Source of the DNA: an uncultured Methanosarcinales archaeon
GTDB taxonomy: Archaea; Nanobdellota; Nanobdellia; Woesearchaeales; GW2011-AR4
DNA length: 48,951 nt
Direction: 5' to 3'
NCBI GenBank assembly: GCA_964564925.1
Contig: CAZMBY010000004.1
Span: 12,892-61,842, forward strand
How positions within the stretch are numbered: position 1 is the first letter of the stretch; each line of letters opens with the position of its first letter. Below, piece after piece: positions 7,934-48,951 of this stretch. A model generated the notes under the pieces. The model was not told where the DNA came from, did not search any database, and was given only the letters and a program-made list of their open reading frames with translations. Made by a program: the position numbers and the translations under genes.

Positions 7934-9859
7934 CTAAATCTCAGTCTTCACTTTCCTGCTGTCAATATTCTTAGAAACTTTCTTGACAAATTCATCAACA
8001 TTGAAGTCAAAATAAACCTTGTTGTCCATTGTCCGTATTGCTATTGTCTTGTTTTTCTCCTCTTTCTCGCCAATAGTGACTATTAACGGAATCTTGTGGG
8101 CTTGAGCTTCCCTAACCTTGTAGCTTACGCTTTCAGTCCTTGAATCGAGCTCAACCCTGAAATTGTTCTTCTCAAATTTTTCCTTGATTTCTTTGGCATA
8201 TCCATCAAACCTATCGGAAACAGTTAGAATCTTTATCTGGACGGGAGCAAGCCATAAAGGCAGCTTGCCAGAGTAATGCTCGACTAAAATCCCGATGAAC
8301 CTTTCAAGGCTTCCGAGCAAAGCTCGATGAATCATGACAACCTTGTGCTTTGAATTGTCAGCCCCCACATAAGTTGCATCAAACCGCTTGGGCAATTGGA
8401 AATCCAACTGTATAGTGGACAATTGCCAGCTTCTTCCAATAGCATCCTTTATGTGGAAGTCTATTTTTGGCCCATAGAATGCCCCTTCTCCCATCTTTAT
8501 CTCATATTTTATCTCCTTATTTTCAAGCGAATTTTTCAAGCTCTGCTCTGCCTTTTCCCATGTCTTGGTGTCGCCCATGAATTTTTCAGGCCTAGTACTC
8601 AGCTCAACCTTGTATTCGAAGTCAAAAGTCTCATTGAAAATAAATTTAATAAAATCCAGAATCCTGAAAATCTCCTCTTCTATCTGCTCTGGCGCAAGAA
8701 AAATATGAGCGTCATCCTGGGACATTTTTCGGACTCTTGTCAATCCCGCCAACACTCCTGAAAGCTCGTTCCTGTGCAAAGGAGCAAAATCAGCAATTCT
8801 CAAAGGCAATTCACGATAGCTTCTTGATTTTGAATTGTAGATCAGCAGATGCGACGGGCAGTTCATCGGCTTCAGGGCGTAATCTTTGCCCTCTGACTGA
8901 AGAGTGAACATATGTTCCCTGAAATGCTCCCAATGGCCTGAAGTAGTCCACAAGGATTTGTCATACAAAAGAGGTGTTATGACTTCGTGGTACCCCCTTT
9001 TCTTGTACTCTTCCCTGATAAAATTTAAAAGCTGATTATAAATGATAGCGCCTTTGGGATAAAAAAATGGAGCGCCTGGGCTCTCCTCAAAGAAATTGAA
9101 CCACTCAAGCTCTTTTCCAATTTTCCTGTGGTCTCTTTTCTCAGCTTCCTCAACCATCTTCAAGTGGCTGTCAAGCATTGATTTTTCCGGAAAGCTTATG
9201 CCGTAGATTCTTTGGAGCTGCTCGTTGCTTGAGTCGCCTTTCCAGTAAGCAGATGAGATTTTTGTCAGCTTCAATCCCTTCATCCTGCCTGTGTTCGGAA
9301 TGTGCGGGCCCCTGCAAAGGTCAACAAAGTCTCCCTGCTTGTATGCGCTCAAGGGCTGGTTACTTTCAACAAATTCTTTGATAAGCTCAAGCTTGAACTT
9401 ATTCTCCTTGAACATTTTTTTTGCTTCATGCTCATTCAGCTCGAGCCTTTCAACTTTGAAATTCTTATCTGCAATATCCTTCATCCTCTGCTCTAATTTC
9501 AAAAGGTCTTCGGGAGTGAAATGGTGGTTTATTCCAAAATCATAATAGAATCCTTCCTCAACAACCGGCCCTATTGTTGGCTTTGCTTCAGGGAACAAAT
9601 CAACAACAGCATGCGCAAGAAGATGCGCAGTGCTGTGCCTGAATGTTTCAACTCCTTCCTTGTCATTGTATGTAATGATTTGCAGATTTGAATCTTCATT
9701 TATTGGAACAAATAAATCCTTAAGCTTGCCATTTATCCTTGCAATCAACGCATCTTCCCCCAGCCTTTTTCCTATTTCGAATGCAATTTGTCCCGCAGTT
9801 GCTCCTTTTGGAAACTCCTTTACGCTCCCGTCAGGCAATGTTATCTTGATTTTTGACAT
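7934..9859 (-). CDS. thrS: Threonine--tRNA ligase, bacterial type (TGS, tRNA_SAD editing, class II core and anticodon-binding domains)
   Basis: FRHSTAHLLAHAV, DLCRGPH, KPMNCPSH, QDDAHIF, FYGPKIDF, QLDFQLP and HRALLGSLERFIGIL. Confidence 0.97.
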   Translation of the reverse strand: MSKIKITLPDGSVKEFPKGATAGQIAFEIGKRLGEDALIARINGKLKDLFVPINEDSNLQIITYNDKEGVETFRHSTAHLLAHAVVDLFPEAKPTIGPVVEEGFYYDFGINHHFTPEDLLKLEQRMKDIADKNFKVERLELNEHEAKKMFKENKFKLELIKEFVESNQPLSAYKQGDFVDLCRGPHIPNTGRMKGLKLTKISSAYWKGDSSNEQLQRIYGISFPEKSMLDSHLKMVEEAEKRDHRKIGKELEWFNFFEESPGAPFFYPKGAIIYNQLLNFIREEYKKRGYHEVITPLLYDKSLWTTSGHWEHFREHMFTLQSEGKDYALKPMNCPSHLLIYNSKSRSYRELPLRIADFAPLHRNELSGVLAGLTRVRKMSQDDAHIFLAPEQIEEEIFRILDFIKFIFNETFDFEYKVELSTRPEKFMGDTKTWEKAEQSLKNSLENKEIKYEIKMGEGAFYGPKIDFHIKDAIGRSWQLSTIQLDFQLPKRFDATYVGADNSKHKVVMIHRALLGSLERFIGILVEHYSGKLPLWLAPVQIKILTVSDRFDGYAKEIKEKFEKNNFRVELDSRTESVSYKVREAQAHKIPLIVTIGEKEEKNKTIAIRTMDNKVYFDFNVDEFVKKVSKNIDSRKVKTEI

Positions 9860-9937
9860 TTTATGATTCGGTTTTTATTTTGTTTTAAAAAGCTTATTGA
9901 AATCAAAAAAAAACAGATTTAAGGAAATGAGCAGCGT

Positions 9938-10003
9938 TTAAGCTGTTGCAGTTGTAGAAGTTGTGAAAGTGCAGCCAATTCGGCAAAAACTGTCTTGTTG
10001 CAT
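9938..10003 (-). CDS. Putative Thr-rich leader peptide/uORF upstream of thrS (MQQDSFCRIGCTFTTSTTATA)
   Basis: ATG 10003 to TAA 9938. Six Thr codons in the last 10. The ATG lies 24 nt downstream of a minus-strand TTTAAATA box. A T9 tract follows at 9913-9905. Confidence 0.5.
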   Translation of the reverse strand: MQQDSFCRIGCTFTTSTTATA

Positions 10004-10026
10004 GATAGCCAAAATTGCACAATATA

Positions 10027-10084
10027 TATTTAAATGTTTCGCATTAGCTTGCTTAAGCTCCAATTTTTCCGAAACATTTATAAA
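10027..10084. promoter_or_regulatory. Back-to-back divergent BRE/TATA promoters (thrS side and abrB/vWA operon side)
   Basis: CGAAACA-TTTAAATA on the minus strand (10041-10027) and CGAAACA-TTTATAAA on the plus strand (10070-10084), together forming an 11-bp inverted repeat. Confidence 0.65.
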
Positions 10085-10145
10085 TATTAATTTTAATAAT
10101 AATAAAATATATTGTAATTTTATTAAAAATAATAAACTTAATAAC

Positions 10146-10349
10146 ATGGAGCCAAAATTCATTGGGAAAGCCAGGCTGACCAAGCAGGGCCAATTGACCA
10201 TGCCGCAGGAAGCGAGGCAGGATTTAAGAATATCTGCAGAATCTGAAGTTTACTGGTACGAATTCAATGATGTTCTTATACTGGCAAAAGAAATTGTTAA
10301 CCCAAAAGATCTGATTGATGGGGTATTGAATAAAAAAAGAAGGAAGTAA
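10146..10349 (+). CDS. AbrB/MazE/SpoVT-family small DNA-binding protein
   Basis: MEPKFIGKARLTKQGQLTMPQEARQDLRI matches the AbrB pattern. ATG 10146 is preferred over the ORF-track start. Confidence 0.8.
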   Translation: MEPKFIGKARLTKQGQLTMPQEARQDLRISAESEVYWYEFNDVLILAKEIVNPKDLIDGVLNKKRRK

Positions 10350-10350
10350 A

Positions 10351-12225
10351 ATGGTGGCTTTACCTTTCCAGAGGCCCTTGGGGCTGTTGGCTTTGATAGG
10401 GGTAGCTATTTTTGTCTTGCTTTACCTTAGAAGGCCAAAACCCCAGGATAAGGTGATTCCTTCCCTTATGTTCATCATGAAGGACAATAAACGGTCAAAA
10501 CAGTACTCATTCTTCCAGAAATTAATGACTAATCTGCTGTTCTTGCTGCAATTGCTCACAATCTTGGGCTTGTGCCTTGTTGCGGCCGCTCCGTTTGTCC
10601 AATTAAAATATGATGAAACATTGGAAAATACAGTGATAATTTTGGACGTGAGTGCCTCTATGCAGGCAAAAGAGGATGGAGTTTCAAGATTTGACAAAGC
10701 CATAGCAGAAGCAAGAAAGGCTGTGAGCGGCAGGAACACAATAATCATGGCTGAAAATATCCCATTGATTGTTTTGGAAAATGAGAATAGCGAGTTAGCG
10801 CTGGACATCCTTTCAAAGATTAAGCCAAGGGTGTCAACTACAAATCTTGGAGATGCATTGCTCCTTGCAAAGGATATACTTGGCAATAATCCCGGAAGGA
10901 TAGTTGTCTTGAGCGATTTCCTTACAACAGAAGGGCCTGATGTCGAGGTTGTGAAGGCAGCCCTGGCATCAGAGGACAAGATTGTTGATTTTGTGGATGT
11001 GTCAAACAAGGCAAGAAATATGGGCATTGTAAAACTTGAAGTAACTAAATACAACACAAAAGTTTATGTAAAAAATTTTGACAGCGAGCAAAAGCAGACA
11101 ACGATAAAGGTTTTGAAAGACAATAAGTTAATTACCCAGACTGAAGTGAAAATAGCCCCTAATTCCATTGAGAACTTTGTCTTTGACACGCCTGCCGGCA
11201 TATCAAAAGTGGAGCTGGAGCCAAAAGATGATCTTGAGGCTGACGATTTCGCATACATTGCAACTCCGCAAAAAATAAGAAACTCGGTGCTGCTCATAAC
11301 AAATGAAAGATTGAGCAATCTTGAGCATGCCTTGGAAGCTGCCAAGGATGTAGAATTGAATGTCGTGCACCCGCCTGTTCTAGAGATTAATTCAAAAAAA
11401 GAGAGGATAGAGCCTTATTCACATGACATCATCATAGTCTATAAAATCAATAACGCCAACAAAAAGGAAGGGATTCTGCCAGGGGCATTTGATGACATAA
11501 GGAAATATGTTGAAAAAGGCGGCAGTTTGGTCATAGCAGCCCAGGATGACTTGAAGGACATTGACACAAAAGAGCTGCTCCCGGTGGAGTTGAAAAGCAA
11601 AATGAGCAAGACGACAAAAGCCTGCGTCGAAACGATAAATCAAATCACAAAACAGTTTGAAAAAGAGAAATGCTTTACCGCAACATCATCCTATTTCGGA
11701 GCCGAGGCAAAAAAAGGCACAATTACATTTGTGTCTGCGGACGACAAAAGTCCAATAATCGTTTATGGCGAGAACAAGAAAGGCAAGAGCGTCTATTACG
11801 GGCTCATGGATGACTTAAGCGACTTCGAGACTCTGCCTTCCTACCCAATATTCTGGAACTCGCTGATAAATTTCATGGTGGGAACCGAGGACATCAAGGA
11901 CTTCAACTACAAGACTGGAAGGATAGTGACAATTAGCGAGCAAAAAGTAAAGACGCCTTCTTCAAGCATCACAACTTCCAAGCTTATGATGGACGAAGCT
12001 GGAATTTACGAATTCGACAGCAAGAAAATTGCGGTTAACCTTCTTGACGAAAAGGAATCAGACATAAGCATACCAACTAAGATTGAGAAGCAGGAAGAGC
12101 GGGAAAGGCTGCTTGGTAGGGAGAGCAAAGAGCATGATTTCAACATTGAGCTTCCGATACTTCTTCTGGTCCTTGTGCTCATTCTGGCAGAGTTTTTTTA
12201 CATAAAAATAAGAGGTGACTTATGA
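10351..12225 (+). CDS. BatA-domain/vWA membrane protein with a class I GATase-like domain
   Basis: N-terminal BatA motif (LLYLRRPKPQDKVIPSLMFI), MIDAS-like ILDVSASM, a Rossmann-like middle domain and a C-terminal TM helix. Confidence 0.85.
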   Translation: MVALPFQRPLGLLALIGVAIFVLLYLRRPKPQDKVIPSLMFIMKDNKRSKQYSFFQKLMTNLLFLLQLLTILGLCLVAAAPFVQLKYDETLENTVIILDVSASMQAKEDGVSRFDKAIAEARKAVSGRNTIIMAENIPLIVLENENSELALDILSKIKPRVSTTNLGDALLLAKDILGNNPGRIVVLSDFLTTEGPDVEVVKAALASEDKIVDFVDVSNKARNMGIVKLEVTKYNTKVYVKNFDSEQKQTTIKVLKDNKLITQTEVKIAPNSIENFVFDTPAGISKVELEPKDDLEADDFAYIATPQKIRNSVLLITNERLSNLEHALEAAKDVELNVVHPPVLEINSKKERIEPYSHDIIIVYKINNANKKEGILPGAFDDIRKYVEKGGSLVIAAQDDLKDIDTKELLPVELKSKMSKTTKACVETINQITKQFEKEKCFTATSSYFGAEAKKGTITFVSADDKSPIIVYGENKKGKSVYYGLMDDLSDFETLPSYPIFWNSLINFMVGTEDIKDFNYKTGRIVTISEQKVKTPSSSITTSKLMMDEAGIYEFDSKKIAVNLLDEKESDISIPTKIEKQEERERLLGRESKEHDFNIELPILLLVLVLILAEFFYIKIRGDL

Positions 12226-14684
12226 CTTTTATAATCCCTGATTACAGCAAGGTATACTGCCTGTCGAAATATTGTGTCAGGTATTCTTATATTTTGATAG
12301 CGATCATTCCAGTGCTCTTGGTGATATTCTGGTTCACGCGAAAGACGTTTGTGAAATTCACCAACAAGTTTGAGCTTGAGCAATACCTAAAGTCAAAAAG
12401 GACTGACAGAAGGATAATCCTCTTTTTAAGGAGCCTTGCAATAATCTTCCTTATGCTTGCGATAGCGTCACCTTTTGTTCTAGAAAGCAAGACGGTTCCC
12501 GGCGACCCAAGATTGACGATTCTTGTGGACAATTCAAGTTCGATGGTATTATACAACCCGAACATGGCTTACGACCTTTATAAGAAGCTTGAAGGGGTTA
12601 TCCCTGTGAACATAAGGACCATAGCAAATGGAGAATCCTCATCTATCGGAAATGGAATATTGAACAACATTGAGGGAGATGACAATGTTTTGGTCATAAG
12701 CGATGGAGTGAATAATGAGGGCAAACTGCTTGGCGACATAATGCTTTTCGCATCAAACATAAACTCGTCTGTCAGCACATTGAGGATGGACTCATTGAAA
12801 AGCGATGTTGGCGTTACAATCCAAGGCCCGGAAGAGATTATAAAGGACACAGAAGGCGACTTTGCTGTCAAGGTATCTGTTGTTGGAAACAACATTCCTT
12901 ACACTCTGCAGGTTTTTGCAGATGACTCGACTCTGATAATGGAGGAGCAGGCAGTTTCATCAGCAGAGCATATTTTTTCAAGAAAATTCCCGGAAGGGGA
13001 ATATCATAAGCTTACAGCAAAGCTTCTCGATGTTGGCAGCGACGACTATTTCAGCAATAATAATGTCTTCTACAAGAGCGTAAAGATAGTGCAAAGGCCG
13101 AAGGTTCTTTATGTGACTGACGAAAACTCGCCATTGGCAGATCATCTGAACAATATATATGAGCTTGAGGAAACAACAACAATACCGAATGACTTATCAG
13201 GATACATGGCAGTCATCCTCAACGACATCAGGGCAGTAAAAATTGCCTCTTCTGTAAACCAATTAAGCGATTATGTCTCAGACGGGAACGGCCTTATATT
13301 TATCGGCGGAGAAAGCTCATTTGACAGGGGAAACTATAAGGGGAGCTATCTTGAAACTTTGCTGCCTGTCAAAATTGGCGCAAGCGAGGAGCAGAATAAA
13401 AGCGACATAAACATTGTTATTGTCATAGACATATCGCAGGGAACTGAAGACTATATCGCAGTGGAGAAAGCGCTTGCATTAAGTGTTGTTGACAGCTTAA
13501 GCGAGAAAAATAATGTGGGTGCGCTTGCATTTGGCTTTACCCCGTGCCAGGCTTTTGTTATACAAGAGCCAAAGCTCCTGAAGGAAATAAAGAACGACCT
13601 GAAGAATAAAATTTCACGCCTGAAATTTGATGGCCAATCATGCTTTGACATCGGTATACAGGGCGGATTCCAGGTATTGAGCAAAGTTGGCGGCTCCAAA
13701 AACATAATTTTTATTAGTGATGGCAAAACAACATACAACAAGCTAAGGGAGGACACGCTTAACCTCGTCAGGACTGTCAATGCGAAAGGCGTCAAGGTAT
13801 TTGTTGTTGGAATAGGCACAGAAACAGACGCGTTGTCGACCGACAACAACCTATTCCTGGCAAACATAGCAACTCTTGGCGAAGGCATTTACTACAAGGC
13901 AGACGCTTCCAACAAGCTTAAAGTGCAGTTTGGAGACAGGGACGAATCACAAGGGGAGGAATTCTACAACACGCTTGTTCCAATTGACACATCGCATTTC
14001 ATTACCCTCGGAATGGATGATATGCAGGCAACTGTAAGCGGCTATAATTATGCCATTCCAAAGCCTGCAGCAAGGCTTCTTGTGACAACCCACAAAAACA
14101 TTCCAATATTGGTTGTATGGCGCTTTGGGCTTGGCAGGGTAGTCACCTTAATGACGGACGACGGCTTAAAATGGGGAGGCGACTTGCTGACCAAACAGAA
14201 TTCCAAGCTTATTACAAAAAGCATCAATTGGGCCATAGGGGACCTTGGAAGGAAGAAAGCCTATGATGTCAAAATCAGGGACACAGTTATTGGCAAATCC
14301 ACAGGTGTCAATGTCATATCAAGGGATATGCCCCAGGCCTCGGGCCTGTCATTCGCAAAAATCGACACTAATTTATACTCTGCGATACATGAGCCAAAAG
14401 AAACTGGCTTTAAGGAAATCTTAGGAGCGACGTTTGCTGTCAATTACAATGATGAGTATGCAAACCTGGGATTGAACAAGGAGTTCACGGCGCTTGTGCA
14501 AAAAACAGGCGGCAAGATATTCGAGCCTGGCGATATAAACGGAATCCTTGAATTTGTCAAGGCAAAGTCAAAAAGAATAAAAATTGAAAGCCAGGATTAC
14601 AGGTGGCCATTTGCAATCATAGCAATGCTGTTGTTTTTATCAGAAATTGCAATAAGAAGATACAGGGAGAATATCCAGAAATAG
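12222..14684 (+). CDS. vWA domain membrane protein with a GATase-like domain
   Basis: LVDNSSSM and VIDISQG vWA motifs, FISDGK, LPVK GATase-like segment, WRFGLGRV, and TM helices at both ends; ATGA overlap with the upstream gene. Confidence 0.85.
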   Translation: MTFIIPDYSKVYCLSKYCVRYSYILIAIIPVLLVIFWFTRKTFVKFTNKFELEQYLKSKRTDRRIILFLRSLAIIFLMLAIASPFVLESKTVPGDPRLTILVDNSSSMVLYNPNMAYDLYKKLEGVIPVNIRTIANGESSSIGNGILNNIEGDDNVLVISDGVNNEGKLLGDIMLFASNINSSVSTLRMDSLKSDVGVTIQGPEEIIKDTEGDFAVKVSVVGNNIPYTLQVFADDSTLIMEEQAVSSAEHIFSRKFPEGEYHKLTAKLLDVGSDDYFSNNNVFYKSVKIVQRPKVLYVTDENSPLADHLNNIYELEETTTIPNDLSGYMAVILNDIRAVKIASSVNQLSDYVSDGNGLIFIGGESSFDRGNYKGSYLETLLPVKIGASEEQNKSDINIVIVIDISQGTEDYIAVEKALALSVVDSLSEKNNVGALAFGFTPCQAFVIQEPKLLKEIKNDLKNKISRLKFDGQSCFDIGIQGGFQVLSKVGGSKNIIFISDGKTTYNKLREDTLNLVRTVNAKGVKVFVVGIGTETDALSTDNNLFLANIATLGEGIYYKADASNKLKVQFGDRDESQGEEFYNTLVPIDTSHFITLGMDDMQATVSGYNYAIPKPAARLLVTTHKNIPILVVWRFGLGRVVTLMTDDGLKWGGDLLTKQNSKLITKSINWAIGDLGRKKAYDVKIRDTVIGKSTGVNVISRDMPQASGLSFAKIDTNLYSAIHEPKETGFKEILGATFAVNYNDEYANLGLNKEFTALVQKTGGKIFEPGDINGILEFVKAKSKRIKIESQDYRWPFAIIAMLLFLSEIAIRRYRENIQK

Positions 14685-14795
14685 CTGAAATGATTAAATA
14701 AATAAACAAGTAATTAAAACATGCCAGAAATTGAAATGATATCGGATTAGCTCGTTGAAATTTATTGAAATCCACAAAAGCATAAACAGAATAAA

Positions 14796-15320
14796 ATGGC
14801 GGCAATGAAAAGGGATGTGAATGTTGGATTGTTGCTATTGATAGTTGCAGCGCTGCTCATGTTCAGCGGCTTCACTGTGTACTACCAAACCACTTTTAAA
14901 AACCTCTCAGTCACATACCAAAATGAATTGGCAGAGCTTGGTAAAGTGACTAAAGACCTTGAGTCAAAGAGGAGCCTTCTGAATGAAACCAGCGTCCAGC
15001 TTCAGCTTAAGCAGCAGAAGGAAGAGGACTTAAGCAAGAAGTTTACCGACGTGAGATCGGAACGTGACCAGCTAGACACTGACAAAAAAAAGCTTGAGCT
15101 TGACCTTGCAACCACCAAATCAACTTTGTCCAGCACAGAATCAAAATTAACGAGCACACAGAAGCAATTGGAAGATAAGCTCCTTCAGGTTGCTGATTTA
15201 AGCCAGCAGGTGCTGAACCTGAAGGCAGATGTGGACAAATTGCAGGACAAGGTTAATGACTTGGATGATGAAGCCGACTGCTTACGCGATAAACCGGATG
15301 CTGAAGAAGGAAGCTGCTAA
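14796..15320 (+). CDS. Membrane-anchored coiled-coil protein
   Basis: N-terminal TM helix followed by a heptad-rich region and a terminal CLRDKPDAEEGSC. Confidence 0.8.
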   Translation: MAAMKRDVNVGLLLLIVAALLMFSGFTVYYQTTFKNLSVTYQNELAELGKVTKDLESKRSLLNETSVQLQLKQQKEEDLSKKFTDVRSERDQLDTDKKKLELDLATTKSTLSSTESKLTSTQKQLEDKLLQVADLSQQVLNLKADVDKLQDKVNDLDDEADCLRDKPDAEEGSC

Positions 15321-15349
15321 AATTAATTTGTGTGCAGGTGATTATTGAC

Positions 15350-16120
15350 ATGAAACAATTTTCAAGTGTTGTTAAGGAAATCAACAGGACTTTAAACCAG
15401 CTGATATTTTTTGAGAATATTGTAAACACTACTTTGGTTTTTTTAGTGTTTTACCTCATACTATCAATTATTGACTTTAGCCCGCTGCTTGCATTGGTTC
15501 CGGCTTTGGCTTATCTTGCATTCTACTCCTATATGAGTTTCAAGTCGTACAAGCCATTGCTTATCGAAAACAAGTATGCGCCATTGAGGGAGAAGTTAAG
15601 GACAGCAACAGACAATTTGGGAATGCAAAGCCCGATCGTAGATGAGCTCGAGTATGAAGTCACAAGCGAGATGAAAAATGTAGGCCTGTCAATGTTCATC
15701 AACCCAAGAACTTTGTCGTACAAGATATTTGCAGTCATGCTCCTTTCATTCTTGATAATATTCAGCACTACCTTAAACCTCAAGCTTCTGGAGTTTGCAA
15801 GGGATAAGGTTCCTGACATATTTGACACAAGGGGCTTAAAAGGCGTTGGCAACTTTGTCGCGACGAAGCTCAACACAAGCGAAGACATCTATGGCAAGGA
15901 TGACGTTGCAAAACTGGGAGATAACGAGCTGAACATAAGGATAAAGCCTGTCGATTTTAAGGTGAATGTCAAAGAAGAAGGGGAGTCCGAGCAGAGAAAT
16001 TTTGAGACTGTCTTCCCACAGGAGATGATTTTGAAGGAGACAGCTGCTTATCAGGAGGACATCCCTCAGGAGCAGCAGGAGCTTGTAAAGAATTATTTTA
16101 AGAAATTGGCAGAAGGATAG
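15350..16120 (+). CDS. Conserved hypothetical membrane protein of MoxR/vWA loci
   Basis: AGGTG RBS before ATG 15350, three hydrophobic helices, LRTATDN motif, and C-terminal QQELVKNYFKKL. Confidence 0.75.
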   Translation: MKQFSSVVKEINRTLNQLIFFENIVNTTLVFLVFYLILSIIDFSPLLALVPALAYLAFYSYMSFKSYKPLLIENKYAPLREKLRTATDNLGMQSPIVDELEYEVTSEMKNVGLSMFINPRTLSYKIFAVMLLSFLIIFSTTLNLKLLEFARDKVPDIFDTRGLKGVGNFVATKLNTSEDIYGKDDVAKLGDNELNIRIKPVDFKVNVKEEGESEQRNFETVFPQEMILKETAAYQEDIPQEQQELVKNYFKKLAEG

Positions 16121-16259
16121 GGATAAAAAAGATTCAACGCATTGCTAAGGTAAACGTTAAGAAACAGCCCATTAAATGAAAATTATTATAAAATTGAGAA
16201 TTATAAGGAATCCTTTGAAATTGATAGAACTGGCAAACAAAATTTGAGGTGAGATTTAA

Positions 16260-17195
16260 ATGAAGAATTACAAGCAGATTTTTGACGAGCTTCAGAAGGA
16301 AACAGGCAAGATTATTGTTGGGCAGGAGAATGTTGTGGAGCAGATCCTGATTGCGATTTTGTGCGACGGAAATGCGCTGCTGGAAGGCTACCCCGGGCTG
16401 GCAAAGACATTGACTGTGAGGACGCTTGCGCAGCTTATGGACCTGAAGTTCAGCAGAATACAAAACACGCCTGATTTGATGCCGTCGGACATTACAGGGA
16501 CATACATCATTGAGGAAGTGTCCGGCAAGCGCCAGTTCAAATTCCAGCCTGGCCCTATTTTTTCAAATGTGGTGCTTGCGGACGAAATAAACAGGGCGAC
16601 TCCCAAGACCCAGTCCGCTCTTCTGGAAGCGATGCAGGAAAAGCAGGTTACAGTCGGAACAAATACTTTCAAGCTTGATTTGCCGTTCTTTGTTTTAGCG
16701 ACGATGAACCCAATTGAGCAAGAGGGGACATATCCCTTGCCGGAAGCACAGGCTGACAGGTTTTTGCTGAAGATAGCTGTAACCTATCCAACCTATGAGC
16801 AGGAATTGGAGATTGTTGACAGATATGCCGCAGAGGCAAAGGATCACAAATTAAAGGTTATGCTGAACAAAAACCACCTTTTGACACTTCAAGGATTGGT
16901 CAGGCAAGTTCCGATAGCAAACGACATAAAGCAGAGGGCTGTTAAGATTATTCTTGCAACAAGAACCAACAAGGAGGTCGTGCAGTATGGTGCATCGCCA
17001 AGGGCGTCGATAGGCCTGATTTTGGCTTCAAAAGCCAGAGCATTGATCCAAGGCAGGAATCATGTAAGCAACGAAGACTTGAATATACTGGCTTATCCAG
17101 TCTTGAGGCACAGAATCATATTGAACTTCGAGGCTGAAAGGAAAGGCATGACACATGACGATGCAATCAAGCACATATTGGAAAAAGTGAAGTGA
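16260..17195 (+). CDS. moxR: MoxR-family AAA+ ATPase
   Basis: Walker A EGYPGLAKT, RIQNTPDLMPSDITG, Walker B LADEINRATPKTQSALLEAMQE, NPIEQEGTYPLPEAQADRF and GASPRAS. Confidence 0.95.
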   Translation: MKNYKQIFDELQKETGKIIVGQENVVEQILIAILCDGNALLEGYPGLAKTLTVRTLAQLMDLKFSRIQNTPDLMPSDITGTYIIEEVSGKRQFKFQPGPIFSNVVLADEINRATPKTQSALLEAMQEKQVTVGTNTFKLDLPFFVLATMNPIEQEGTYPLPEAQADRFLLKIAVTYPTYEQELEIVDRYAAEAKDHKLKVMLNKNHLLTLQGLVRQVPIANDIKQRAVKIILATRTNKEVVQYGASPRASIGLILASKARALIQGRNHVSNEDLNILAYPVLRHRIILNFEAERKGMTHDDAIKHILEKVK

Positions 17196-17224
17196 GGTCT
17201 AGCTTTTAATCATCATAACTGAAA

Positions 17225-17734
17225 TTGAAAATGAGGTTATCAAGCACAGAGTTGAAAGTAATCTATGCGTGGCCTAATGGCGGCTGGGGTTACCATGTTA
17301 ATCCTGCAATCAAGCCAATTTGCGACAGCCTTGTAAGAAAAGGTGTTATGGAGGTTATTGGTAAGGCTGCATACAAGCCCCTTTTTTGGGAATACATGAC
17401 AAACCATGAGAAAATACCAAGAATGTCAGACAAGTACGGCAAGTCTATCCTGAATAGGCCAATCAATCAACTTGCTCCAGCTGAAAGAAAAATAAAAATT
17501 GAATACCAAAAGCTGCGCGGCAGGAGTTTTTATCTTGATTCGAGGTGTTTTAAATTTTATAGGTATAAGAAACGAACGTGGTGGATAGAGCATGATCCAG
17601 AGTATATTGGCTTGACAAAACAAGGTGTAAAAGAGCACGCAGAATTGATATTAAGGAATAAGCGATTTGTTAGACAGGATAAGGAGGAGTATAGGGATGT
17701 TAGGGATATTGATGATGACGACGGTTTTTTATAA
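17225..17734 (+). CDS. Hypothetical protein inserted between moxR and the DUF58 gene
   Basis: 169-aa ORF (start 17225 or 17231) with no recognisable family; aromatic/basic composition and an acidic tail. Confidence 0.6.
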   Translation: MKMRLSSTELKVIYAWPNGGWGYHVNPAIKPICDSLVRKGVMEVIGKAAYKPLFWEYMTNHEKIPRMSDKYGKSILNRPINQLAPAERKIKIEYQKLRGRSFYLDSRCFKFYRYKKRTWWIEHDPEYIGLTKQGVKEHAELILRNKRFVRQDKEEYRDVRDIDDDDGFL

Positions 17735-17758
17735 TCGTGAAGCAGACTGGAACTGAAG

Positions 17759-18610
17759 ATGATAAACACTCAATTTTTGGACCAATTGACAAGATTTAAT
17801 CTTGTGATAAACAAGAGGGTTACTTCCAATCTTTCAGGCCCTAGAAAATCTGTTTCCGGCGGCCATGGGCTGACTTTCAAGGATTACAGGATTTATGCCC
17901 CTGGAGATGACATAAGGCTGATAGACTGGAGAGTATTCGCAAGGACTGACAACTTGTACATAAAAGTCCATGAAGAGGAAAGAAATTTAACAGTCCACAT
18001 CATAATTGACAGGAGCGCGTCGATGGAGTTTGGCAAGCCAATCAGCAAATTTGATTATGCGTCCATGATAGGTGTGGGATTTGCTTACCTCGCTTTGAGG
18101 GACAATGAAAGGTTCCAATTCTCCACTTTTGCAGACACTTTGGACATCTTCCAGCCGAAACGAGGGATGAGCCACCTTGCAGCTATGGTGCAGCATCTGA
18201 ACTCTATAAAGCCAAAGGGCAACTCCAAGATTGTTGACACAATAAGGCAGTACAAGAAAGTTATTGGAAGCAGGTCCATGCTTGTGCTAGTTTCAGACTT
18301 TCTTGTGAACATTGAGGAGATAAGAGAGGCCTTTTACATGCTTGGCGATCATGACATAAAGATAATACAAGTGCTTGACAGGGTCGAGAAAGAGCTCAAG
18401 ATGGAAGGAGACATGAAGCTTATTGACAGTGAGACAAAAGGAATGTTGAGAACATTCATAAGCCCAAGGCTAAGGATGCAGTACCAGCAGCAGCTCGATG
18501 AGCATTGCTCAAGAATAGAAGAAGTGTGCAACAAGCTGAATGTGCATTATCATCTTGCTATAACAGACACTCCTGTCTTTGACACTTTCTACAAAATATT
18601 GGCCAGATGA
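17759..18610 (+). CDS. DUF58 domain protein (vWA-like MoxR partner)
   Basis: FKDYRIYAPGDDIRLIDWRVFART, IIIDRSASMEFG and VSDFL. Confidence 0.92.
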   Translation: MINTQFLDQLTRFNLVINKRVTSNLSGPRKSVSGGHGLTFKDYRIYAPGDDIRLIDWRVFARTDNLYIKVHEEERNLTVHIIIDRSASMEFGKPISKFDYASMIGVGFAYLALRDNERFQFSTFADTLDIFQPKRGMSHLAAMVQHLNSIKPKGNSKIVDTIRQYKKVIGSRSMLVLVSDFLVNIEEIREAFYMLGDHDIKIIQVLDRVEKELKMEGDMKLIDSETKGMLRTFISPRLRMQYQQQLDEHCSRIEEVCNKLNVHYHLAITDTPVFDTFYKILAR

Positions 18611-48842: not shown

Positions 48843-48951
48843 GGGCTCGTAGTCTAGCGGCTATGACGTCACCCTTACAAGCCGCAGGTTAAATTTTATT
48901 TAACCATTTTACGAAAGGTGAAGGTCACCAGTTCGAATCTGGTCGGGCCCA
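48843..48951 (+). tRNA. trnV: tRNA-Val(TAC) with a ~36-nt anticodon-loop intron (about 48880-48915)
   Basis: Acceptor GGGCTCG/CGGGCCC-A, D arm GTC/GAC, anticodon stem TCACC/GGTGA with CT-TAC-A, and T arm ACCAG-TTCGAAT-CTGGT. The intron contains the hairpin GGTTAAA/TTTAACC. Confidence 0.9.

Follow-up and report, generated by a model that had tools for sequence, protein, structure and literature searches.

What is a short, threonine-rich open reading frame (ORF) doing in front of the gene for threonyl-tRNA synthetase (ThrRS) in an archaeon? The question was raised by a 48,951-nt stretch of the woesearchaeal contig CAZMBY010000004.1, which was analysed at its full length and is termed the window in the following. 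On the minus strand, the leader ORF (uORF; 9938..10003) comprises 21 codons and a TAA stop codon, with the ATG at 10003-10001 and the stop at 9940-9938, and encodes the peptide MQQDSFCRIGCTFTTSTTATA. It is followed by thrS (7934..9859, minus strand), the ATG of which, at 9859, lies 78 nt past the uORF stop. A first-pass annotation had interpreted the uORF as an attenuator-like, threonine-sensing leader peptide, and the coordinates given there (uORF, codon run, promoter consisting of TFB-recognition element (BRE) and TATA box, hairpin, T9 tract, second TATA box and thrS ATG) were all found to be correct.

The conspicuous part of the uORF is its end, where a codon run (9941..9970, minus strand) reading ACT TTC ACA ACT TCT ACA ACT GCA ACA GCT contains six Thr codons, one Ser codon and two Ala codons. 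The Thr codons thus all fall among the final ten codons of the uORF, with ACT and ACA strictly alternating; genome-wide, Thr makes up 5.3% of codons. Among the 396 small ORFs of the window, 10 have at least six identical residues out of ten, none of these residues being Thr, and 20 shuffled windows yielded no Thr-rich small ORF (none with 6 Thr). Judged within the window alone, the uORF is only moderately unusual and has to be regarded as suggestive.

For comparison, thrS loci were drawn from species-representative genomes, metagenomes and an exact-protein look-up, every sequence compared being metagenome-derived. This comparative evidence was decisive and showed the uORF to be real and beyond chance. 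In 22 distinct loci of Woesearchaeota, thrS was found to be preceded by a uORF with a Thr run; the ThrRS sequences of these loci are 62-100% identical to that of the window, and the 22 are all clade loci with enough upstream sequence (22/22). Examples of the peptides from relatives are MSKKSAVSNKKILTDSTTTTTA, MANIVLLLLDIIFNTTSTTSTTTTTA, MKILILLMAEHSTLKLTTSTTTTTTA and MKNLISSLVNLFLNTNSTTSTTTNTA. The check in relatives that the first-pass annotation had itself suggested therefore came out in its favour, and the claim of a Thr-rich, probably leaderless uORF tied specifically to thrS was borne out. Uninformative on the uORF were L008, L013 and L020, where the sequence ends too near thrS, and L041, which has no upstream DNA. 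The uORF was not found at the distant ThrRS loci L030-L034 and L042 (58-63% identity) and L025 (44% identity).

The link of the uORF to thrS is exclusive. It remains with thrS in five loci despite a different upstream neighbour (L001, L002, L006, L009, L010), and an AbrB-like/BatA neighbour, as found in the window, is retained in three loci without uORF (L030, L032, L033). Scanning 256 kb (window plus loci) for a TATA box followed at a distance of 20-26 nt by the ATG of a small ORF with an amino-acid run returned the Thr uORF as the sole clear match; for other residues, the same scan gave weak Leu, Ser, Lys and Ile runs or the antisense of the uORF, and no conserved run ORF. The 30-mer uORF consensus has no second copy elsewhere in the window. 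The four IMG/VR matches of a 20-mer are irrelevant, each falling within coding or coding-like sequence rich in Thr or Ala that has neither a uORF context nor a neighbouring thrS.

Across the 22 loci, the uORF homologues are 21-28 codons long and every copy ends with the Thr/Ser run, where 3-8 of the last 10 codons are Thr codons. The clade consensus of the run is ACT ACT TCT ACA ACT ACA ACA ACA GCT, corresponding to a peptide ending in TTSTTTTTA, and ACA is present at position -2 in 21 of the 22 loci. Individual positions drift to Ala, Ser, Ile, Asn or Val and insertions or deletions comprise whole codons, with Thr-richness being kept. Conservation is poor over the N-terminal two thirds of the peptide, where weak amino-acid similarity is seen in the form of hydrophobic residues and an Asn near position 10. 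Through this non-conserved part, the uORF frame is open in 16/16 loci, the other two frames being open in 2/16 and 5/16. The shuffle probabilities per locus of the open frame multiply to ~5e-10, a value which is uncorrected for shared ancestry and, like the pairing statistics given below, inflated by the relatedness of the loci.

ACC and ACG together make up 4% of the Thr codons within the run vs 20% genome-wide, and this scarcity fits either an extra constraint at the RNA level or mere shared descent. Three other interpretations of the ORF were rejected. An effect of rare codons was discarded because no Thr codons are more frequent in the genome than ACA and ACT, and a precursor of a ribosomally synthesised and post-translationally modified peptide with a Ser/Thr-rich core because genes of modifying enzymes are not linked. 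An 87-codon extension of the frame (9938-10201, minus strand, ATG at 10201), which crosses the divergent promoter region and runs antisense into the neighbouring AbrB-like gene, is an artefact of ORF calling and is not conserved in relatives.

The promoter of the uORF, P1 (10027..10042, minus strand), is composed of a BRE-like GCGAAACA and the TATA box TTTAAATA (10034-10027) and ends 23 nt before the uORF ATG. The motif (G)AAAGN-TTTAAATA was found 22-24 nt ahead of the uORF ATG in 14 of the first 16 loci, with variants in L006 (TTTATATA and 22 nt) and L027 (TTTATATA and 21 nt), and the spacing is likewise present in L011, L028, L029, L035 and L036. Altogether, at least 20 of the 22 loci have a P1 TATA box that ends 22-24 nt ahead of the uORF ATG; L001 has no clear TATA box at this position. 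Many first genes of the window show a distance of 22-23 nt between TATA box and ATG, which is typical of leaderless genes, and leadered or operon-internal genes of the window carry Shine-Dalgarno (SD) sites of the GAGGTGA type. Since the spacing at the uORF matches that at leaderless genes of the same genome, the uORF most likely forms the start of a leaderless mRNA. A scan for bacterial promoters returned sigma-70 matches only, which are irrelevant in an archaeon.

A second promoter, P2 (9883..9891, minus strand), is present between uORF and thrS, with a TATA-like TTTTTAAAA (TTTTAAAA at 9890-9883) 23 nt before the thrS ATG. It belongs to the conserved block TTCAAYAAAATATATAAAYC, and in about 12 of the 19 main-clade loci the TATA box of this block ends 22-26 nt ahead of the thrS ATG. 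The thrS gene of the window has no SD site, and, given the conserved TATA box at leaderless spacing, thrS probably has its own, mostly leaderless promoter, as had been cautioned in the first-pass annotation. Longer 5' untranslated regions of thrS were seen in L004 (2930-3000), L013 (60-143) and L009 (2950-2997), each with a hairpin right before the ATG (AAAAATCAC...GTGATTTTT); in L004 and L013, thrS carries an AGGTGA SD site embedded in this hairpin, which may constitute a separate translational control.

Around the uORF stop, the window contains a small hairpin (9932..9945, minus strand) formed by CAGC (9945-9942) and GCUG (9935-9932), with the stop codon in the loop. The predicted energy is -4.7 kcal/mol (z -1.7), and of the structure seen in relatives only the inner 4-bp stem is present, the outer stem being absent. 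The clade consensus, ...ACU UCU ACA ACU ACA ACA ACA GCU UAA AAGCUG CUCA UUGUU, can be drawn as a two-tier hairpin, whose 5' side, AACAA-CAGCU, is separated by the stop-containing loop from a 3' side made up of AGCUG, a CUCA bulge and UUGUU, so that the last Thr codons constitute the 5' arm. The stop codon falls within the loop in nearly all loci, and several arrive at a hairpin by other routes, such as CAGCC/GGCUG in L007, AACAGC/GCUGUU in L003 and L009, GCAGCU/AGCUGC in L005, GCGAC/GUUGC in L018 and CAGCA/UGCUG in L023. A hairpin spanning the stop is compatible with the alignment and is plausible but not proven. Pairings of the T-tract RNA (CUGUUUU) with AAGACAG or AACAG of the uORF, which the first-pass annotation had considered as an alternative, were rejected because they lie partly in the non-conserved N-terminal part and because the complete P1 RNA of the window is folded no more stably than shuffled sequences (z -0.03).

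The hairpin is followed by a T9 tract (9905..9913, minus strand), which begins 24 nt after the uORF stop and is a candidate archaeal oligo-T termination or pause signal; oligo-T tracts are the intrinsic termination signal of Archaea. Runs of at least four T begin at +11 to +47 past the stop in 18 of the 19 main-clade loci, L009 having none, and in most loci the main T tract starts at about +22 to +36, approximately 5-10 nt after the 3' arm of the hairpin, and ends about 10-20 nt upstream of the BRE/TATA of P2. In the three loci L011, L028 and L035, termed the ORF90 subclade after an additional ORF described below, no run of at least five T was found. A consensus scan revealed no terminator of the bacterial type, and Rfam cmscan of 9700-10300 and of the L028 leader at E<=10 gave only unrelated sub-threshold matches.

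From this arrangement, we favour the reading, to which we assign a rough probability of 0.4, that the conserved uORF acts in cis as a leader ORF and signals to thrS how much charged tRNA-Thr is available, with ribosome stalling favouring read-through into thrS. Transcription from P1, with its strong BRE/TATA, would start at the A of the uORF ATG and result in a leaderless mRNA, on which a ribosome would load at the 5' end and trail RNA polymerase over the 21-28 codons, the final 9-10 of which are mostly ACA or ACU. These final Thr codons would at the same time serve as the 5' arm of the weak hairpin, with the stop codon in its loop and the oligo-T tract at the short distance given above. With Thr-tRNA-Thr being plentiful, the ribosome would reach the stop and depart, the hairpin would form, and transcription from P1 would end at the T tract before P2. 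With Thr-tRNA-Thr being scarce, the ribosome would stall on the Thr run and the hairpin would be held open; more polymerases would then pass the T tract into thrS, on top of the expression driven by P2. When the stop codon occupies its A site, a ribosome would be expected to protect the RNA to about +12, and a polymerase that has reached the T-tract end to hold the last ~15 nt. With the stop-to-T-tract geometry found, ribosome and polymerase would nearly touch, which would suit a decision that depends on their coupling.

Several points weigh against this reading. The conserved and probably leaderless P2 provides thrS with a promoter of its own, and, with no SD site at thrS, transcripts reading through from P1 may be poorly translated, which makes the output step doubtful; the lack of the SD site is the main argument against wiring by read-through. 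The hairpin is weak, with energies of -4 to -12 kcal/mol and z-scores of -3.7 to +1.0 (median about -1.7) relative to dinucleotide shuffles, and RNAalifold returned no consensus structure for the main-clade MAFFT alignment A1. For the two-tier structure named on alignment A4, 85.5% of the cells pair vs 83.9 +/- 0.8% after shuffling (36/500 shuffles reach it), and covariation was marginal, with double changes in three pairs and five cells only (12/500). A conserved antiterminator alternative was not found. Further, a ribosome stalled as early as the first or second Thr codon would not obstruct the hairpin, which makes the sign of the response ambiguous, and archaeal polymerases end at oligo-T without a hairpin, a modulation of this by ribosomes not being established. 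In L017, L023, L011, L028 and L035, the uORF is located 300-600 nt from thrS, with other ORFs in between. Finally, in L027, the closest relative of the window (90% ThrRS identity), no more than TTSAATA, with 3 Thr, is left of the run; its leader ORF (L027:2290-2500) is degenerate (MELLMDFYKIKIELTTSAATA) and the stop-spanning hairpin is lost (z +0.97). Because of this decay and loss, the element may be relaxing in the immediate lineage of the window. Of the attenuator-like leader proposed initially, the leader ORF with cognate codons is thus supported, and the classical terminator/antiterminator pair, for which terminator, consensus structure and clear covariation are missing, is not.

The same sensor could be wired to a different output, which we regard as unlikely, namely that read-through from P1 across P2 represses thrS. 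It would occlude P2 and yield a leadered, SD-less thrS RNA that is poorly translated; a ribosome following closely would block the hairpin as well as the access of FttA, by which termination at the T tract would be suppressed, and a stall early in the run would uncouple the ribosome, resulting in efficient termination, release of P2 and increased thrS expression. This agrees with the conservation of P2 and its spacing for a leaderless thrS mRNA, with thrS being SD-less in a genome that uses SD sites, and with the T tract ending just about 10-20 nt before the BRE/TATA of P2. By geometry, a ribosome held up at the earliest Thr codons, about -27 to -22 from the stop, would not prevent the hairpin from forming. 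For Archaea, polarity that depends on translation and is attributed to FttA has been documented (PMC12548453, citing Santangelo 2008 and Sanders 2020). The main argument against occlusion is that no precedent is described of a leader ORF occluding the promoter of an aminoacyl-tRNA synthetase (aaRS) gene; it also leaves unexplained the loci with 300-600 nt and other ORFs before thrS. The output step could thus lie in T-tract read-through or in occlusion of the thrS promoter, the sequence being compatible with either. The core that both wirings share, i.e., a Thr-rich, probably leaderless leader ORF tied to thrS that reads charged tRNA-Thr via the speed of the ribosome, appears somewhat better supported than its negation when the two are taken together.

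If the uORF did not sense tRNA charging, it might be an independent small gene beside thrS, with its own promoter and oligo-T terminator, that specifies a micropeptide rich in Thr, a small RNA or a dual-function RNA, acting in trans or in an unrelated process. The strong promoter and the T tract of the unit, the separate promoter of thrS, the persistence of the unit after insertions that moved it 300-600 nt away from thrS, and the weak N-terminal similarity (hydrophobic residues, Asn near position 10) are in line with this, and bacterial attenuator RNAs and leader peptides are reported to be able to work in trans (PMC6614838, PMC7298713). We consider it rather improbable, as a Thr run beside the gene of the Thr-tRNA synthetase is the signature of cognate-codon sensing, the linkage to thrS is kept in 22/22 loci while other neighbours vary, and the run conserves Thr-richness alone and not single residues. 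Moreover, genes for modifying enzymes or transporters are not linked, and a peptide so short and so variable would not make a folded protein. Very unlikely, in our view, is an RNA or DNA operator in which the ORF is secondary. In one version, ThrRS would bind the UUGU-containing 3' arm or an anticodon-like loop, comparable to the autoregulation of E. coli thrS; in the other, a transcription factor would bind ACAACTACAACAACAGC upstream of P2. The unusual uniformity of the synonymous sites of the run (ACC and ACG scarce, see above), the conservation of CUCAUUGUU outside the ORF and a 5-bp stem with a C(U/C)UGUAA loop in the ORF90 subclade, which resembles the anticodon loop of tRNA-Thr(UGU), would fit an operator, but such an operator leaves unexplained both the coincidence of the ATG with the predicted start of transcription, seen in at least 20 of the 22 loci, and the frame that is open across non-conserved sequence. 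In addition, the anticodon-like loop is known from three sequences only, and the window leader is devoid of it, its hairpin loop being UUAAAC or UAAA. The sensing leader ORF acting by read-through therefore remains the reading that we prefer.

The loci in which the uORF is separated from thrS are of two kinds. In L017 and L023, a decayed P-loop-kinase-like ORF lies between the uORF unit and thrS; these short inserts (L017 ~949-1152, L023 ~1790-1930; MPKTKM..GMxYxGKST) each follow a copy of a P2-like TATA box. In the ORF90 subclade, the order after the uORF is a conserved leader of ~160 nt (uORF plus leader at L011:2430-2641, L028:1972-2170 and L035:168-359), a GGAGG SD site, an ORF of 81-97 aa (ORF90; L028:2168-2440, L035:357-650, L011:2687-2932), a TATA box and thrS. 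The N-terminus of ORF90 in L011 looks frameshifted. No Pfam match was obtained for the inserted ORFs (ORF90 and the L017 fragment).

RNAalifold of the three ORF90-subclade leaders gave a structure of -27.5 kcal/mol, in which the Thr/Ser codons UACUUCUA pair with the SD region UGGAGGUA; this SD helix comes from three sequences and shows no covariation. The predicted long hairpin of these leaders is capped by a 5-bp stem and the 7-nt loop C(U/C)UGUAA, which was likened to the tRNA-Thr(UGU) anticodon loop and occurs in L011, L028 and L035 only, ~100 nt before the SD site of ORF90. The leader of this subclade may thus combine a translational attenuator with a mimic of a ThrRS operator, which, with three sequences, is a lead and not a result.

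The remainder of the window places the unit in its genomic context. The window is archaeal, as reflected by S-layer_C, Gins51, aIF2-alpha, PAC2 and an intron-bearing tRNA, and the closest public ThrRS sequences carry the Woesearchaeota label. By domain search, ThrRS (641 aa) is complete, with TGS, tRNA_SAD, class II core (tRNA-synt_2b) and anticodon-binding (HGTP_anticodon) domains in the bacterial-type order. Domain and family scans of the window revealed no aaRS gene besides thrS. On the opposite strand, an AbrB/MazE-like gene (10146-10349, plus strand, 67 aa) neighbours the thrS side; its BRE/TATA, CGAAAC-ATTTATAAA (10070..10084, plus strand), stands back to back with P1 and is conserved in loci retaining this neighbour. 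The gene opens a divergent cluster (10146-18610, plus strand) that comprises AbrB/MazE-like, BatA-VWA-DUF7406/7/8, VWA/GATase1-like, DUF7502, MoxR AAA_3 ATPase and DUF58 genes. Pairing of thrS with AbrB-like and BatA genes was also seen in L036, in addition to the uORF-less L030, L032 and L033.

Hairpin-rich inserts, some in tandem, were observed in the intergenic region, where they separate the divergent promoter of the AbrB-like gene from the thrS side, at L033:2290-2440, L032:2380-2450, L012:~1390-1460, L018:~10-130, L029:2220-2300 and L027:2240-2320 (example, CGAAAATCAAAGATTTTCGAAGCCCAAGAAATCTTTGATTTCTGCTGG). These inserts may represent either small mobile palindromes or structured RNAs. 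At the end of the window, an intron-containing tRNA (48843-48951, plus strand) is preceded by AAAGGTTTTTATA. It scored 54 bits with Rfam and was missed by ARAGORN at default settings; with introns allowed, ARAGORN assigned it to Ser(UGA) after removal of a 36-nt intron, a doubtful assignment for a tRNA of 75 nt.

Cognate-codon leader peptides are a textbook device of Bacteria that needs coupled transcription and translation as well as hairpin-dependent terminators. Archaea also couple transcription and translation, and their eukaryote-like polymerase terminates at oligo-T and via FttA. The thrS uORF would thus represent a known principle in a domain with a different transcription machinery and in a tandem-promoter layout. 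No archaeal leader-peptide sensor was found in the full-text literature searched, and to our knowledge none is known for Archaea. At roughly even odds, the unit would be the first archaeal amino-acid-sensing leader peptide, in which coupled translation decides the outcome at an oligo-T tract and so provides charged-tRNA-Thr feedback on a DPANN aaRS, with a sister subclade having an SD-sequestering attenuator and possibly a tRNA-Thr anticodon-loop mimic. According to general descriptions, most amino-acid biosynthesis is absent from DPANN organisms, which rely on imported amino acids. If the reading is true, it would offer a concrete example, open to testing, of archaeal gene control mediated by the ribosome and a first hint of how DPANN organisms tune aaRS levels. 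The unit is also a natural system for asking if a trailing ribosome alters termination by archaeal RNA polymerase.

Among known systems, the enterobacterial attenuators (thrL, pheM-pheST, trpL, hisL) come to mind first, with which the window leader shares a T tract after a hairpin overlapping the end of the leader ORF and, as in trp, thr and pheST, a leader ORF rich in cognate codons. Unlike these, the setting is archaeal, with a TBP/TFB promoter and a predicted leaderless start, and with P2 placed between leader and thrS, the leader would not be on the only transcript of thrS. In place of a GC-rich intrinsic terminator, there is a weak hairpin 5-10 nt from the T9 tract, and neither a conserved antiterminator nor an Rfam leader match is present. 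The thrS uORF may thus work like a leader-peptide attenuator, yet it should not be filed as a member of this class because the single transcript, the intrinsic terminator and the antiterminator are all missing. The E. coli pyrBI and pyrE attenuators are similar in that a single hairpin lies over the end of the leader ORF, the ribosome itself anti-terminates, and the outcome is set by the closeness of ribosome and polymerase at a U-rich site. There, the signal is UTP-dependent pausing of the polymerase in conjunction with a bacterial intrinsic terminator, whereas codon-specific stalling of the ribosome is proposed here.

Two bacterial systems control the same gene by other means. The T-box riboswitches of Firmicutes thrS likewise distinguish uncharged from charged tRNA-Thr and control read-through into thrS, but the window leader has no Rfam T-box match at E<=10, no specifier loop and no T-box sequence, and sensing is proposed to occur via the ribosome. 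The E. coli thrS operator, in which mimics of the tRNA-Thr anticodon arm are bound by ThrRS, has in common with the present case the gene itself and a ThrRS of the bacterial type, and the ORF90-subclade hairpin with its 7-nt loop C(U/C)UGUAA is reminiscent of it. In contrast, the window leader shows no anticodon-like loop and no operator beside the thrS start, and it contains a maintained ORF.

A further comparison is with the polycysteine leaderless small ORFs (sORFs) of mycobacteria of the Ms5788A type, a tested system in which the codon run pairs with a downstream SD site (bioRxiv 10.1101/834739). The two differ in that an archaeon, Thr and an aaRS target are concerned here and a biosynthetic operon there, and the window and the main clade have no SD site to sequester, a T tract and a second promoter intervening instead. 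What they have in common is a leaderless sORF as first cistron, as judged for the window from promoter spacing, a cognate-codon run at its 3' end and, as proposed here, the sensing of charged tRNA via ribosome stalling. The likeness extends to the ORF90 subclade, where pairing between the codon run and the SD site of the next ORF is predicted, and this suggests that in this lineage the uORF heads a longer mRNA laid out like those of the mycobacterial polycysteine leaderless sORFs.

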